From a virus (Duplodnaviria > Heunggongvirae > Uroviricota > Caudoviricetes): a DNA stretch of 40,414 nt. Made by a program: the position numbers and the translations under genes. Shown one piece after another: positions 3,702-34,997 of the stretch; position 1 is the stretch's first letter, and each line of letters starts with the position of its first letter. The notes below the pieces were generated by a model. That model was given only the letters and a program-made list of their open reading frames with translations, did not search any database and was not told the origin of the DNA. The stretch is from positions 1-40,414 of IMG/VR virus record IMGVR_UViG_2917398303_000004; one strand, 5' to 3'.

Positions 3702-6419
3702 TTAAGCTACATTGCCGGGGTAGGAGGCATTGTCGTATTGATAGAAGGAGTCGCGGTATTCTTTTGCTGTAACCTGACATGTTCCGTCAGACTGCGGTGA
3801 AATCTCTGAGATTAGTGCGCTGTAACCAACACGTGAAGATTCGCAGAATATAAGGCGTGGAGGTTCGATAGATTGATCATTCAGTATGATGCCGATGAAC
3901 TCATCCTGTTCAGACACCGATAATTCATAATCACTAACCTTAGTAACTGGAAGCAAACCAGACGCTGAGCCATCCTGATAGCGAATTAACGCGCGCGGAT
4001 TGTTGAATGTCCAGTCAAGTGGTTCTGATACAGCGATAGTTGTTACACCACCTACAGTTCTCATATGATCAATCAAAGTGCTGATTGTTTTGCTACCTGG
4101 AATGTCATCAGTAAAAACAATTCGGTCGCCTACGTTATAGCAAAGCGCGTCCATTTCCGTGGTCGTGGTATGGGTCAAACGCTGCTGCCTGTACTTCATC
4201 AGCCTTCGCATGCCTATCTGATAAGCTCTGTCCTGATCAAGCACGCCATCAAGCGTATAATCTTCAACTTTAACTGGAGTAGGATTACCCGATGTTCTGC
4301 ACTGAACCGTCTCTTCAGCCCACGTAGTGCCATTAATGTAAGTGACATCCACGCCATCATAATCATCGGCTGATGGTGCAACGAAGGCCGTTTGAAGCGC
4401 TTCTGTCATTTCCTGCGGGCTAATGATTCCCGTCCACGTTTTCACCCCCTCCCTTCCAACAGAAGCCATACCATCAGACAGCAGGAAATAGCTTTTACCT
4501 GCACTGGTGACTTTCTGAAACATTTCAAGAGCGGAAACTGAGTCTGTTGTTGCGTAATCGAAAAACTCGCTATCAGGCGTCCAGTAAGATGATTCCAGCA
4601 TATCAATCGCTTCGTTATCCATCGCAAGCCCCAGCTCATTTCCAATGTGGTATAGCGCACCTGAAATGCTCCTGGAAATACCGGAATCATAAATGCGTGT
4701 GGCGACTACGTTGACACGGCGATCGGACTGAGCGGCAAGCTTTCCACCCGTTTCGACTGAGACAGCCATAGTGGTTACACCAGAGTATGATGATGGTCTT
4801 GAAAGCAACCTCCCCCTCAATGACTGCCAGTACATGTTATCCCTGCTGTTATCCTGACCTTGTTCGTTCGTTCTCCTGCATCTAACCTCTACCAAACCGG
4901 CTGATGCCAACGTGATACGCTCAGTAAAACCTAACCCATTAATATTTTGCTGATTGTAAGATCCAGTTTTGCTGGTCCAGCCTGAACCAGAACCGTAAAC
5001 ACGGTATTGAATTTCCCACTGAACAATCCTGTTCTGCTTCCTGCCCTTCTTGTTATACCCACAAATACCGTTTGGGAAGAAGAAATTGACCTCAAACATA
5101 TCAACGACTTCATTATCTGGACATGTGAGAAACGGCCCCATCCATTTATTGTTCTGATTTAATCCGTTTGCTTCAAAATCAAGCACTGTACGCGGCGTGA
5201 AACCTGGCCATTCCGGGTCAACAGCACCCTCTACAACACGCTGTAAAGTAACGGTGCTGGCGTCGATTTCCAGAATTTTATATTCGCTGCCTGAGTGCGA
5301 TACTGATAAACGAATGTATCCTTCAGGAATACCAGTAAATGCTGTTCCGGTTGCGCTTTCATACGCCAGAGCGATTGACGCCGTAACAACGTCTTCATCA
5401 ACAGGTTCTGAATGGGGGATGTAATCAGCAATGAAAAGCTGGTAATCGATACTGTTGTACCAGAGAGTAACTGGCATACCGATGTATGGAGCAATCTCTT
5501 CCAGTGTGTCACTGGTTATTCTGCTGTATGCGCCATCATTGGTGACAACATAAGAATCTGGAACAATCAGTTCAACAATTGCACCTTCTGTCCATGAGTC
5601 AGGAAGGTCGTTTGTATCAGTATTTCCATCGTCAGTACTAAGGCCGTTAAAGGTGATATCTGCACCAGATACCGTTAATGAATCTGCTACAACATCCTGT
5701 GTATCCGGGGCTGTCTGCGCCATATCAAGACCAGAACCAGATGCCGTTCCGCCTACTTCTGTTGAGTTGAACCAGTTTTCCGTTCGCTGATCACCGATAA
5801 TGTTCTGTCCTGGCTGATATACATTATAGGTAAACCCATCACCAAGAGAGGCGATTGGCGTTGACCCAACGCGAATGTCGCCATCACCAAATGAAAAACG
5901 GCCCATACCCAGCACCACAAACATTTCAACCGTCATTACAGTCGGATCATCAGTTGAGAATCTTGTTACTGGTTGCACTGCATAATCTGGATAAATACGG
6001 CTGCGACCAAATAACTCGCGTATCGGATCACCCAATTTCGCGTTATTCGCTTTAGCAGGATTTACATCAAGTGGATTACCTGTTCCTGATGAATAACCAC
6101 CAAGATCACCAACACCAGGAGCAAAGAATAAAGCGTAAGCTACAGACGCAACTGATACGGCAACTGCAATCCAGGCGAGAGCTACAGCACCGTAAGGAAC
6201 AGGATAAATTCTGACGTCGCTATCCGGGCTGATTGCGAACTCAAACCACGCCTGAGATGGAATATTTTTCCCATCAACGTCAATTGTGATCGGCTGTTTA
6301 ATATCAGGCTTATAGCCCTCTACTTTTTTTGACAGCCATTGATGTATGGTTATAGCGCCATGTTCATGTGTTTCCAGCGGTTCGCCGGGGATGCGGGAGG
6401 GGTAAATTCGGATAGTCAC
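3702..6419 (-). CDS. Tail tip / host-specificity (central fibre, J-like) protein
   Basis: 905-aa protein immediately downstream of NlpC/P60 tail assembly gene and upstream of tail fibre; start overlaps upstream stop. Confidence 0.6.
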   Translation of the reverse strand: MTIRIYPSRIPGEPLETHEHGAITIHQWLSKKVEGYKPDIKQPITIDVDGKNIPSQAWFEFAISPDSDVRIYPVPYGAVALAWIAVAVSVASVAYALFFAPGVGDLGGYSSGTGNPLDVNPAKANNAKLGDPIRELFGRSRIYPDYAVQPVTRFSTDDPTVMTVEMFVVLGMGRFSFGDGDIRVGSTPIASLGDGFTYNVYQPGQNIIGDQRTENWFNSTEVGGTASGSGLDMAQTAPDTQDVVADSLTVSGADITFNGLSTDDGNTDTNDLPDSWTEGAIVELIVPDSYVVTNDGAYSRITSDTLEEIAPYIGMPVTLWYNSIDYQLFIADYIPHSEPVDEDVVTASIALAYESATGTAFTGIPEGYIRLSVSHSGSEYKILEIDASTVTLQRVVEGAVDPEWPGFTPRTVLDFEANGLNQNNKWMGPFLTCPDNEVVDMFEVNFFFPNGICGYNKKGRKQNRIVQWEIQYRVYGSGSGWTSKTGSYNQQNINGLGFTERITLASAGLVEVRCRRTNEQGQDNSRDNMYWQSLRGRLLSRPSSYSGVTTMAVSVETGGKLAAQSDRRVNVVATRIYDSGISRSISGALYHIGNELGLAMDNEAIDMLESSYWTPDSEFFDYATTDSVSALEMFQKVTSAGKSYFLLSDGMASVGREGVKTWTGIISPQEMTEALQTAFVAPSADDYDGVDVTYINGTTWAEETVQCRTSGNPTPVKVEDYTLDGVLDQDRAYQIGMRRLMKYRQQRLTHTTTTEMDALCYNVGDRIVFTDDIPGSKTISTLIDHMRTVGGVTTIAVSEPLDWTFNNPRALIRYQDGSASGLLPVTKVSDYELSVSEQDEFIGIILNDQSIEPPRLIFCESSRVGYSALISEISPQSDGTCQVTAKEYRDSFYQYDNASYPGNVA

Positions 6420-32496: not shown

Positions 32497-32838
32497 CTAC
32501 CCTCTTGCAGCTGCTGTACGCATTGCACGACTGAACAAATCAACACGGTCAAGATCTTCCAGGCTTGGTACGTCCACCAGCAGTGCGCCGCGACGCTTGG
32601 CAAAGTAGTCGGCAACGAATGACGTGTTGGAAATGTCCTCCATCGCTTCCAGCTCAGTGACCTCAAAGAAACGACAACCGTTTTTCTCGTAAAGGTTGTT
32701 GTTGAATTGGGTTTCTGACATGCCCAACGCACCAGCCATAGCCTGACGGCCTCCGGGGTACGCCTTACACATCGCTTTCACCACGTCTTTCAGGGTTTGC
32801 TCTACCATCTTTTTTTTCCTTTGGTAGTTATCAATCAA
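32497..32838 (-). CDS. cII-like regulatory protein (HTH)
   Basis: 113-aa ORF immediately downstream of cro; AMAGALGMSETQF HTH-like segment. Confidence 0.45.
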   Translation of the reverse strand: MIDNYQRKKKMVEQTLKDVVKAMCKAYPGGRQAMAGALGMSETQFNNNLYEKNGCRFFEVTELEAMEDISNTSFVADYFAKRRGALLVDVPSLEDLDRVDLFSRAMRTAAARG

Positions 32839-33097
32839 CTAAAAGTTGCGTACTGTTGGGCTGTACCGGTAATCCATCATGTTTATTTGGGTAAATATCT
32901 GGTCGTAATTGATGTGGCGTTACAGTCCATCCACCCCACTGACATAACTGAATTACCCTTTCTGAAGGGACTCTGTTTTTCGAAATCCAGTTCGCAACTG
33001 ATTGAACTGACTGAAATTCGAATTTTCTTGACACTTCAGAAATTGAGCCAACCGCTTTAACAGCTTTAGCGGTGACATTCTTGTGTTGATCTGACAT
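32831..33097 (-). CDS. cro: Cro-like repressor (YdaS/Cro family HTH)
   Basis: Start at MSDQHK with GGAG Shine-Dalgarno 5 nt upstream; divergent from cI. Confidence 0.6.
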   Translation of the reverse strand: MSDQHKNVTAKAVKAVGSISEVSRKFEFQSVQSVANWISKNRVPSERVIQLCQWGGWTVTPHQLRPDIYPNKHDGLPVQPNSTQLLVD

Positions 33098-33128
33098 GTT
33101 ATCTCCAGTGACTAAGCTTGCATCAATA

Positions 33129-33141
33129 CTACTTATAGTAG
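33129..33141. promoter_or_regulatory. OR operator palindrome CTACTTATAGTAG
   Basis: Inverted repeat CTACT-N3-AGTAG in the cro-cI intergenic region; same motif recurs at 34000-34012. Confidence 0.55.
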
Positions 33142-33166
33142 CAATTATTGGCAACTTAAAATAGAA

Positions 33167-33886
33167 ATGACAACTATGCCTTGTGCGCTTAATCTTCTAC
33201 TTATGGTGGAAAATGCTAAATACAAAGACTTTGCCGACAGGCTAAACAAGTCTCTCCAAGAGCAATCAATTGGAGTTAAAGAATTGTCAGAGTTCAGTGG
33301 TGTCTCATATGAGATGGCGCGACGCTATACTCTTGGTACTGCAAAACCACGAGATGAAAAGATGATTCGAATTGCAGACAGGCTTGCCGTATCCCCTGCT
33401 TATCTTGATTACGGGGTACCTGTTAATGGCGGTGATGCGCCCGCTACCGGGACGGTTAGAATTCAGCAATTGGATGTACATGCATCAGCCGGTTCGGGAT
33501 ATATCAATCAACCGTTTCCAACGATTGTCAGCTCGATAGAAATACCAGAAGATAGGATTTTCGAATTGTTTGGCCGGAGAAGCTTAGATGGTATCGTGAT
33601 GATCAACGTAGATGGCGACAGTATGATGCCTACGTTGTGCCCTAAGGATCTGCTCTTCATTGATAGTAAAGTTGAGCAATTCAGTGGAGATGGTGTTTAC
33701 GTGTTCAACTTCGAGGACAGTACCTTTGTAAAAAGACTACAAAAAGTTAAAGGTCGTCGTCTGGCTGTCCTATCAGACAATGAACACTATCCTCCCTTCT
33801 TCATAGAAGAACACGAAATGAATGAGGTTTACATCTTCGGCAAACTTATCAGATGTTTACCTCTGAAAATGATAGAGTTTGGATAA
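33167..33886 (+). CDS. cI: CI-like repressor (HTH plus S24 LexA-type autopeptidase domain)
   Basis: N-terminal HTH, C-terminal GDSM Ser motif and downstream Lys; possibly leaderless start at 33167. Confidence 0.8.
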   Translation: MTTMPCALNLLLMVENAKYKDFADRLNKSLQEQSIGVKELSEFSGVSYEMARRYTLGTAKPRDEKMIRIADRLAVSPAYLDYGVPVNGGDAPATGTVRIQQLDVHASAGSGYINQPFPTIVSSIEIPEDRIFELFGRRSLDGIVMINVDGDSMMPTLCPKDLLFIDSKVEQFSGDGVYVFNFEDSTFVKRLQKVKGRRLAVLSDNEHYPPFFIEEHEMNEVYIFGKLIRCLPLKMIEFG

Positions 33887-33902
33887 TCATTCATCCATAA
33901 AG

Positions 33903-33926
33903 AACCGGCGAAAGCCGGTTTTTTTT
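33903..33926 (+). terminator. Rho-independent terminator after cI (AACCGGCGAAAGCCGGTT + T8)
   Basis: Perfect 7-bp stem, GAAA loop, T-run. Confidence 0.7.
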
Positions 33927-33989
33927 CGCTATAAAATCTTATGCACTATAAAAAAACAACCTAAAAGATAATTTTTCTACTTTTTGTTG

Positions 33990-34019
33990 TTGCATTTATC
34001 TACTTAAAGTAGCTATATT
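33990..34019 (+). promoter_or_regulatory. pL-like promoter (TTGCAT-18-TATATT) with embedded OL operator CTACTTAAAGTAG at 34000-34012
   Basis: Sigma70-like hexamers; operator palindrome differs from the OR copy by one central base. Confidence 0.55.
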
Positions 34020-34372
34020 CTATTCACCAACAGCAAACAGCCAATCACGGTAAGCATCTCGCAGGGTTCTTACCGGGACTGGAAGAGTTACCACTTGGAG
34101 ACGGTCCTTTTAAATGTCCTGGACAGTGGCGGTACCAGCACCGATAACAGCGGCAGACGTTAAACTGTAAAAACGGAGAGATGCCAGCTCCCTCGACGGC
34201 AGTGACGGCGGGAAGTAGACCGCTGACAGCTCGGAAAGACGAGCACACAACGATGAGAACATTGACGAGCAAGGCATAAAGGCAGGTTCAATTCCTGCCA
34301 CCAGCATAATAATGGTGGTGATGGGCAGGGAAAAGGTCCGTTCAATTCGGACACCGGCAGTGTTCTCTTCGT

Positions 34373-34496
34373 TGTGTTGTAGCTCAATAGGTAGAGCGCC
34401 TCCTGAAGGAGGAGTTGAGCACTAACCAAGGATCATAACCCAGTTATCTCATGCGGCTGGCCAGACGTTATCCGGGTTCGAGTCCCGGCAGCACAA
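34373..34496 (+). ncRNA. tRNA-like element with canonical acceptor, D-arm and T-arm but an aberrant 74-nt central region
   Basis: Acceptor TGTGTTG/CAGCACA, D-arm GCTC-AATAGGTA-GAGC, T-arm CCGGG-TTCGAGT-CCCGG; no canonical anticodon arm could be folded by eye. Confidence 0.4.
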
Positions 34497-34574
34497 CTCA
34501 CAACATGAAAGCGCACTCCTTTACTTACCAGTTATGGGTGACAGGTGTGAAACAGGTGGAGTGCGCTTCCAGTT

Positions 34575-34653
34575 GCGGCATTAGCTCAGTTGGATAGAGC
34601 AACGGCCTTCTAAGCCGTGTGGGTCGCAGGTTCGAATCCTGCATGCTGCACCA
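34575..34653 (+). tRNA. tRNA-Arg (anticodon UCU) with encoded CCA
   Basis: Hand-folded cloverleaf: 7-bp acceptor, D-arm, anticodon stem ACGGC/GCCGT with loop CTTCTAA, 7-nt variable loop, T-arm GCAGG-TTCGAAT-CCTGC; resembles argU-type tRNA. Confidence 0.8.
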
Positions 34654-34997
34654 GAATCACGTAGCCAGCGTGGTACCAGGAAGTAAGAAAGCTGTGTGGA
34701 GTCTTGGCGGTACCAGTACCAACCTTTGAAGTCCCTGGTGCCGCCCTTTTTACTCAACTGAAAGCGCGTTCTGTCCCTTGTCATTAAGTGCCAGTTCGTT
34801 AAATCCAAAACCAGCGGAACGCGCTTTCAATTGAGTGGAGAAACTAACCGGCGATTGCAGTCGCCCGTTTCACTAAGTGCCTCTTGATGGGGCATTTACT
34901 GAAACGAAACCAAAACTTTTATTCGCCTTTTGGCGAGGGATTCGTGCAACCAAAATTCAGCGCCGTGCAGGGCGCATATAACACGGAGAAACTAACC

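Follow-up and report, generated by a model that had tools for sequence, protein, structure and literature searches.

The window analysed here is the whole 40,414-nucleotide stretch of IMG/VR record IMGVR_UViG_2917398303_000004, a virus of the Caudoviricetes, and the subject of this text is the immunity region that lies between its divergent cro and cI genes and extends just beyond the end of cI. The cI-type repressor is read rightward (33167-33886, + strand) as an open frame of 239 amino acids, or of 227 if translation begins, as is probable, on a leaderless message at ATG 33203, which is Met13 of the longer frame. The cro-like gene is read leftward (32831-33097, - strand) and encodes 88 amino acids. 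The repressor carries a Peptidase_S24 domain (PF00717, 63.3 bits, cut-off 23.3) behind a helix-turn-helix (HTH) domain (HTH_3, PF01381, 23.0 bits, cut-off 23.0), and a profile of its family matches UmuD, LexA and 434 Cro in the PDB, while a PDB search with the single CI sequence returned nothing at E ≤ 0.01. The Cro-like protein belongs to the YdaS/Cro family (PF15943, 39.8 bits, cut-off 30) and matches the Cro protein of PDB entry 3bd1 (E = 6.6e-5), and the next leftward gene encodes a CII (CP76)-type regulator by Pfam. An earlier reading of the window, referred to below as the first-pass annotation, had placed a first palindrome between divergent cro and cI genes, and the Pfam and PDB matches agree with it. 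Its broader claim also holds: divergent cI and cro, a right operator region (OR) that overlaps promoters and a left operator region (OL) beyond cI make this the immunity region of a lambdoid prophage.

Two early promoters frame the region. The rightward-lambda equivalent, pR, reads toward cro (33126-33154, - strand) with -35 TTGCCA (33154-33149), a 17-nt spacer and -10 TAGTAT (33131-33126), and matches the consensus at 9 of 12 positions. Its transcript would start near 33119, upstream of the cro Shine-Dalgarno sequence GGAGA (33107-33103), and the two bases that end its -10, A33126 and T33127 on the + strand, are invariant in 53 sequences of the comparison described below. The cI gene is followed by an intrinsic terminator (33904-33926, + strand; ACCGGC-GAAA-GCCGGT and a T run; fold -15.9 kcal/mol, z = -4.05), whose stem is kept by compensatory changes in relatives (CCGGC/GCCGG versus CCGCC/GGCGG). 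Downstream of it lies pL (33990-34019, + strand), with -35 TTGCAT (33990-33995), an 18-nt spacer and -10 TATATT (34014-34019), just as the first-pass annotation had described it, with a palindrome in the spacer; its start is placed near 34026. The TTG of its -35 and its -10 region are conserved among relatives at 1.3-1.4 bits per column, and the counterpart in locus L008 reads TTGACA-17-TATATT. A consensus promoter and terminator scan listed pR and missed pL, the cI terminator and the cI promoter proposed below; pL was missed because TTGCAT agrees with just three of the six consensus bases. The scan was accordingly given no weight as evidence for these elements.

Probable paired operators at OR and OL

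Two perfect palindromes of the form CTACT-N3-AGTAG lie in these promoters, at the positions previously reported. OR1 (33129-33141, CTACTTATAGTAG) overlaps the spacer and -10 of pR, and OL1 (34000-34012, CTACTTAAAGTAG) lies inside the spacer of pL and fills it up to 1 nt short of the -10. On both strands of the window these are the only exact matches, and the expectation from 100 dinucleotide-preserving shuffles is 0.00; the shorter core CTAC-N5-GTAG likewise occurs twice, at OR1 and OL1 only, with 0.24 expected. A chance origin of the palindromes is ruled out by the shuffles and by their conservation among relatives.

Each palindrome has a weaker partner with two mismatches, 23 bp away on the promoter-upstream side. 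OR2 (33152-33164, CAACTTAAAATAG) overlaps the -35 of pR, and OL2 (33977-33989, CTACTTTTTGTTG) abuts the -35 of pL, so that along the direction of transcription both promoters share the order O2, 10 bp, O1. A third candidate at OR, also with two mismatches, lies inside the annotated 5′ end of cI (OR3, 33197-33209, CTACTTATGGTGG). All five sites are dyads and are listed with no strand. Sites with at most two mismatches are not enriched in the window as a whole (14 found, 11 expected), and 5 of the 14 fall within 33129-34012. From the site density, the chance that both partners share one pre-chosen 23-bp offset is about 1.2e-7. The 50 bp upstream of OL2 contain no match at two mismatches or fewer that could serve as an OL3 and are not conserved (0.48 bits per column); a third OL site is present in some distant relatives (L073, L081). 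A further perfect palindrome, CAACTAAAAGTTG, which resembles the operator with two mismatches, lies at 32836-32848, where cro ends and shortly before the cII-like gene begins. This palindrome occurs in only the three closest relatives (L009-L011) and was dropped as a fourth site of the switch.

The comparative evidence comes from about 80 related loci overall, with cI identities of 42-100%. The phylogenetic footprint covers 72 loci; their sources are Escherichia (Nissle 1917 among them), Mixta, Pantoea, Rouxiella and IMG/VR contigs. The relatives were drawn from one-per-species genomes (Mixta, Pantoea, Rouxiella, Phlomobacter) and IMG/VR (64 loci, 62-100% identity), and the repressor gene served as a gap-free anchor for every locus. 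In each of the 55 distinct OR regions OR1 starts at -38 from the equivalent of ATG 33167 and is a near-perfect dyad, and OR2 starts at -15, 23 bp beyond it, with at most two mismatches except in the L049 clade, where it is degraded and the AATAG half alone is kept. The OL2-OL1 spacing is exactly 23 bp in 58 of 58 distinct OL regions, and OL2 is itself a perfect palindrome in several relatives (L027, L051, L053, L070). Information content reaches 1.85 and 1.79 bits per column at OR1 and OR2 (53 distinct OR regions) and 1.83 and 1.81 at OL2 and OL1 (59 distinct OL regions), whereas the cro leader has 0.43, the sequence upstream of OL2 has 0.48 and that downstream of pL has 0.51. The comparison supports the two palindromes as the shared operator core of OR and OL, as the first-pass annotation had taken them to be. 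A comparison of related immunity regions could have exposed different conserved operators; the conserved blocks it returned are exactly these sites, and the 69-bp gap between cro and cI holds no other conserved repeat in the relatives compared.

Within the motif, positions C1, T2, A3, C4, G10, T11, A12 and G13 are invariant at OR1 and OL1, and the dyad symmetry itself is conserved among relatives. Position 10 of OR2 is A in 53 of 53 sequences and never the otherwise invariant G, and for this reason we regard OR2 as a site conserved, on the pattern of substitutions, in weakened form. At OL2, position 9 is T, rarely G or A, and position 12 is A or T. The first-pass annotation had seen a single full palindrome per region, with possible half-sites nearby, and had set this apart from the arrays of lambda. 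The nearby sites are real; they are full-length imperfect dyads with two mismatches each and not halves, and the conserved 23-bp pair in each region, together with the candidate OR3, speaks against the single-site description.

Several points temper this evidence. Many of the loci are close relatives and not independent, the conserved blocks overlap promoter hexamers so that promoter function explains part of their conservation, and the consensus scan finds no excess of promoter-like sites in the immunity region. With these in mind, we consider it very probable that the dyads are the operators of CI and Cro.

The arrangement differs in one group of relatives. Loci L049, L052, L055, L057-L059 and L071 carry an extra near-perfect dyad, CTAATATTAGTAG, at +5 to +17 from the ATGAC element, and L048 carries a similar one, CTAATCATAGTAG; both lie within the 17-nt spacer of the promoter proposed below for cI. 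In the L049-type members that have the extra spacer dyad, OR2 is reduced to CAACCAAAAATAG. The combination of an added spacer dyad and a degraded OR2 suggests that operator positions can shift between clades.

The 5′ end of cI

Two base pairs beyond OR2, at the ATG from which the first-pass annotation assumed cI to start, begins a sequence with the features of a promoter for repressor maintenance, pRM (33167-33195, + strand): a -35-like ATGACA (33167-33172), a 17-nt spacer (33173-33189) and a -10 TAATCT (33190-33195). Among 52 distinct relatives ATGACN is found in 51 and TAnnnT in all, and TAnnnT is invariably followed by 7 nt and an ATG, here 33203. The spacer is always 17 nt long, yet it takes 27 different sequences.

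Read as codons of the long frame, the same stretch behaves unlike the rest of the gene. "Codon 8" specifies nine different amino acids and is always NNT, "codon 9" specifies N, T, K or S and always has A first, and codons 3-7 are hypervariable without a base ever gained or lost. Leu10 and Leu11 never depart from CTT and CTA, respectively, and Val14 is limited to GTG and GTA, whereas elsewhere in cI CTA and CTT account for 14% and 30% of leucine codons and GTT plus GTC for 70% of valine codons. The first ~20 codons have a synonymous entropy of 0.2, and the gene as a whole has 0.76. By this pattern the codon-position invariants at the 5′ end of cI are constraints on the DNA. Taken with the fixed ATGACN-17-TAnnnT-7-ATG spacing, they argue for a weak sigma-70 pRM whose transcript would start at ATG 33203 or 1 nt before it and yield a leaderless cI mRNA, a reading in which we place moderate confidence. 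The ATG at 33167 would then probably be the -35 of pRM and not the start of cI, the likely start being the leaderless ATG 33203 of the pattern found in all 52 sequences. The mRNA of lambda cI is the classic leaderless message. PaaR2, the product of the cI-like gene in the YdaS-type module of prophage CP-933P, is also translated from a leaderless mRNA, as determined by 5′ RACE and N-terminal sequencing (PMC8630535).

With +1 placed at 33203, OR2 spans -51 to -39 and is centred at -45, OR1 is centred at -68, and the candidate OR3 extends from -6 to +7 and covers the ATG; the predicted starts of pR and pRM lie about 84 bp apart. OR3 matches the operator with a single mismatch in some relatives (CTACTCATGGTAG, CTACTTATGGTAG).

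Other observations count against a third operator and a leaderless start. OR3 has two mismatches in the window, and its counterparts in the Pantoea clade are degraded (CCAC...GTGG), with CCA in place of CTA. The -10 TAATCT agrees with the consensus at only 3 of 6 positions, which is why the consensus scan does not list pRM. The frame from 33167 to 33203 is free of stops in all 26 sequence variants, for which we roughly estimate a chance of ~1% in non-coding DNA, and a 239-residue isoform, made for example from establishment transcripts, is possible. The peptide motif NLLxMVE recurs in distant homologues, so that conservation of 33191-33211 could be partly at the level of the protein.

In the strongest alternative cI is translated from ATG 33167, the promoter has its -10, TAAAAT (33157-33162), inside OR2, and 33191-33211 is conserved because it encodes an N-terminal arm containing NLLxMVE. 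OR1 would then occupy the -35 position, and the repressor would be purely self-repressing in the manner of LexA. The open frame fits such a gene, the more so as several lineages have gained stops in frames 2 and 3 and never in frame 1; the sequence AAAATAGAAATGAC is invariant; NLLxMVE recurs in distant homologues; and in NCBI the Nissle homologue is annotated from this start, with 239 residues. As proof of coding, however, the open frame is weaker than it appears, since the proposed -35 and -10 elements themselves, through their invariant TGA and TAA, supply most of the stops in the other two frames. The promoter fits poorly too. Sigma-70 transcription usually starts 7-8 nt downstream of the -10, and TAAAAT, which lacks a -35, ends 4 nt before the ATG, so that the usual start would fall at G33169 or A33170, within the ATG (33167-33169) or one base beyond it, and the ATG has no Shine-Dalgarno sequence. 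A peptide explains neither the NNT of codon 8 nor the first A of codon 9. Changes of Leu to Pro and of Leu to Arg or His occur within the supposedly conserved arm, the hypervariable codons 3-7 never alter in length, and several database entries of 227-229 residues start at Met13. The TAAAAT promoter was our first model and was demoted because its hexamer ends so close to the ATG and because the ATGACN-17-TAnnnT pattern explains more of the invariants; we now regard this alternative as unlikely.

Annotated starts within the repressor family disagree. P0017, P0016 and P0019 are 244-245 residues long, P0100 is 168, and P0049, P0064 and P0069 are 227-229; the annotated N-terminus of many database entries coincides with the ATGAC element, that of some is Met13, and others begin MQL(K/L)KIEMT.... 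The start of P0100 falls inside OR2 in L073, and that of P0017 appears, from its MQLKIEMTT N-terminus, to do the same. If pRM is as we propose, Met13 is the one correct start on the transcript made in the lysogen.

Repressor domains and the proposed reading of the dyad

The recognition helix of the repressor, YEMARRYTLGTAKPR, is invariant among homologues down to 42% identity (alignment A3). In the same alignment Ala108-Gly109 is nearly invariant, and Ser152 (in GDSM) and Lys189 (in KRLQ) do not vary. On the model of LexA and lambda CI we take the former to be the cleavage site and the latter two to be the catalytic dyad; the protein therefore has the Ala-Gly site and the Ser and Lys residues of a self-cleaving LexA/S24 repressor, and SOS induction of the prophage would be expected. 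P0074, from locus L081, lacks the Ala-Gly region, which falls within a gap of 12 columns in A3 (about 11 residues of the window protein). It keeps the Ser and Lys residues, its locus keeps the CTAC operators, and it may be a non-inducible variant.

Natural recombinants connect the dyad to the N-terminal domain. Where this domain is joined to a different S24 domain (P0077, P0075; loci L075, L076, L083), the CTAC sites are kept at the same positions, and they are also kept where it is joined to a short non-peptidase C-terminus (P0100, 168 residues, Klebsiella; L073, L074). Conversely, P0098 (L077, L078) has the C-terminal domain of P0077 behind another N-terminal domain, and its locus holds ATCGC-N4-GCGAT-like repeats and no CTAC sites. 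The Cro proteins follow the same division. In an alignment of 51 distinct Cro proteins the recognition-helix region ...SVQSVANWI... is common to all CTAC-type loci and conserved only there, and the Cro of the P0098 locus differs in it. The evidence is correlative, but the natural domain swaps sort as they should if the dyad is read both by the N-terminal domain of the repressor and by Cro. The suggestion in the first-pass annotation that the palindromes define repressor specificity gains from it, as the motif persists with the same N-terminal domain and Cro helix and gives way to other repeats when the N-terminal domain differs.

The domain swaps also bear on the possibility that the palindromes are promoter cores, or targets of another factor such as Cro alone or a host protein, and that CI binds elsewhere. 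Every site does overlap a promoter element, which would preserve part of it in any case. Against this, pR and pL share the 13-bp dyad despite their different promoter registers, its symmetry is conserved, the motif is tied to one CI N-terminal domain across three C-terminal architectures and is absent otherwise, and the cro-cI gap offers no other conserved repeat to which CI might bind; this explanation is highly improbable. We give equally little credence to a single operator per region flanked by non-functional half-site debris and lacking lambda-like arrays, for which the one perfect palindrome per region and the shuffle-like frequency of imperfect sites across the window might be cited, because conservation at OR2 and OL2 matches that at OR1 and OL1, the 23-bp spacing is invariant, OL2 is perfect in several relatives and the O2-N10-O1 arrangement recurs at both promoters.

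The short repressors deserve separate mention. Proteins of 161-168 residues (P0095-P0115; L073/L074 2001-2507, Klebsiella-type loci) have this N-terminal domain at 53-62% identity and a non-peptidase C-terminus; genes for YdaS and YdaT lie beside them, and OR retains CTAC-type sites. On the far side of the repressor gene, downstream, the scan finds in L073 and L074 an outer pair of sites 44 bp apart, and a weaker site between them can be seen by eye, which suggests three sites at ~22-bp spacing. These loci thus apparently join the immunity specificity seen here to another route of induction, one that does not depend on SOS.

A probable lambdoid switch and its known counterparts

The sites occupy defined positions, are exceptionally conserved at fixed spacings, go with particular CI and Cro DNA-binding domains and stand beside promoter-like invariants. 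From these observations we infer binding, order of occupancy, cooperativity, activation of pRM and all transcription starts, and the working of the switch may be proposed as follows. CI dimers would bind the 13-bp dyads through the core CTAC-N5-GTAG. Because the strong site of each pair lies in the spacer or -10 region and the weaker one on or beside the -35, occupied pairs would occlude RNA polymerase at both pR and pL, with the weaker OR2 and OL2 probably filled cooperatively, as in lambda. The cI gene would be transcribed from the weak ATGACA-17-TAATCT promoter, with a transcript beginning at ATG 33203, and OR2, centred at -45 beside the pRM -35, has a geometry compatible with activation of the kind exerted by lambda CI. 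The weak OR3 across the start point could mediate autorepression at high repressor levels or allow Cro, which is expected to bind the same sites, to shut off cI. RecA-stimulated cleavage at Ala108-Gly109 would induce the prophage. Taken together, the locus is in our judgement likely to be a lambdoid lysis-lysogeny switch of its own immunity specificity, with OR and OL pairs, a candidate OR3 and a probable leaderless cI.

A wider proposal is more tentative, and we would put it slightly short of an even chance. The "first 12 codons" would be mainly pRM and an operator over a leaderless start, most database entries would have the wrong N-terminus, a long isoform would arise from establishment transcripts and account for the open frame, and one DNA-binding module with one operator set would be combined with three C-terminal domains, two S24 and one non-peptidase. 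If so, a single immunity specificity has been wired to different induction mechanisms.

The immunity region is ~83% identical in DNA to that of a prophage in 33 of 5,426 complete E. coli genomes, including Nissle 1917 and its engineered derivatives. Members of the immunity group are found in Citrobacter, Enterobacter, Escherichia, Pantoea, Erwinia, Yersinia, Serratia, Providencia and Morganella. Among deposited phages the nearest are Phi06_2987 S, an unannotated 14.5-kb fragment (CI 97% identical), and two Providencia phages (~60-62%), and no close phage relative of the structural genes of the window was found. The analysis defines the operator, the layout of sites and the probable promoters for an immunity group widespread in Enterobacterales prophages, and can be used to predict homo-immune prophages and to correct the annotated start codon of the repressor. 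The compact 13-bp operator and its repressor could also serve as an orthogonal genetic part.

Compared with known systems, the region has what sequence can reveal of a lambdoid CI/Cro switch, namely divergent HTH + S24 and Cro genes, multiple dyads at OR and a matching cluster at OL. As in lambda, the dyads overlap pR, pRM and pL, a strong promoter-proximal site has a weaker partner ~23-24 bp away, OL lies just past the cI transcription unit, OR2 stands beside the pRM -35 and the cI mRNA is probably leaderless. In lambda OR2 lies at about -42 and OR1 at about -66 from the pRM start, with the pR and pRM starts 82 bp apart; the corresponding values here are -45, -68 and ~84 bp, and the layout of OR is essentially that of lambda, the third site excepted. 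The candidate OR3 is 45 bp away from OR2 and covers the pRM start together with the start codon of cI, whereas OR3 of lambda is 23 bp away and covers the core of pRM. A 13-bp CTAC-N5-GTAG dyad takes the place of the 17-bp operator of lambda, CI is ~25% identical to lambda-type CI, OL has two sites in place of three, and Cro and CII belong to the YdaS family and the CP76/YmfL type.

No N gene was identified after pL. The ~850 nt that follow (34020-34880) have instead no convincing open reading frame and contain a normal tRNA-Arg(UCU) (34575-34653) and, upstream of it, a 124-nt tRNA-like element (34373-34496, + strand; Rfam tRNA, 45.9 bits, gathering score 29). The element has good acceptor, D and T arms, a 4-nt loop in place of the anticodon loop and a 56-nt insertion in the variable region, and is not called by ARAGORN. 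Several prophages of differing immunity type share a conserved block, ...CCCACGAAGTAGCCGCC..GG.GCATATGAA..., 40-90 nt downstream of pL (L001 at about 4230-4290, L006, L008, e14 as L080 and Rac as L079). The block is absent from the window and may be a shared leader or an antitermination-type RNA element.

The PaaR2/YdaS/YdaT switch of CP-933P in E. coli O157:H7 is similar in that a YdaS-family Cro faces a cI-like regulator, across a gap of 97 bp there and of 69 bp, to the annotated ATG, here; its operators overlap both promoters and its regulator gene is leaderless (PMC8630535). It differs in its operators, four 18-bp palindromic repeats with the consensus GTTTAGTAA, and in its small repressor, ~15 kDa by mass spectrometry in His-tagged form (PMC8630535), as against the S24-bearing repressor here. 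The place of CII is taken there by YdaT and here by a CP76/YmfL-type protein. The e14 prophage (YmfK/YmfT/YmfL) has the same order of S24 repressor, Cro and YmfL-family protein and an operator in the pL spacer directly after the repressor terminator. The YmfL-family neighbour suggests an e14 immunity type, which was rejected: the alignment of YmfK with cI is confined to 72 residues of the S24 domain, at 29% identity, with no similarity detected to the N-terminal DNA-binding domain, and the e14 repeats are of a GTAC type. A Rac type, suggested by the YdaS neighbour, was rejected likewise, as RacR shows no similarity and its sites are of a TTAGGC type. The Nissle 1917 prophage, by contrast, has the same operators, a CI 97% identical and the same gene order.

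The operator and the recognition helix are unlike the specificities of lambda, 434, P22, Rac, e14 and CP-933P. Among the papers searched with four operator variants none reports them as a phage operator, the single match being a human case report, and the literature about YdaS immunity regions and the prophage of Nissle yielded analogous systems only. Shiga toxin (Stx) phage 933W has a lambdoid switch that lacks OL3, and its repressor is reportedly non-cooperative at adjacent sites (PMC3317979); its operator sequences are unrelated to those described here, the two-site OL is common to both, and such an OL is within the range of known switches. We conclude from the comparison of sequences that the repressor operator CTAC-N5-GTAG is previously undescribed and marks a new immunity specificity, outside those characterised, of a well-known kind of switch, with an OR that is probably tripartite and lambda-like, a bipartite OL and a cI that is probably leaderless. 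It is a further example of the lambda OR layout recurring with unrelated operator sequences, and leaves the paradigm unchallenged.

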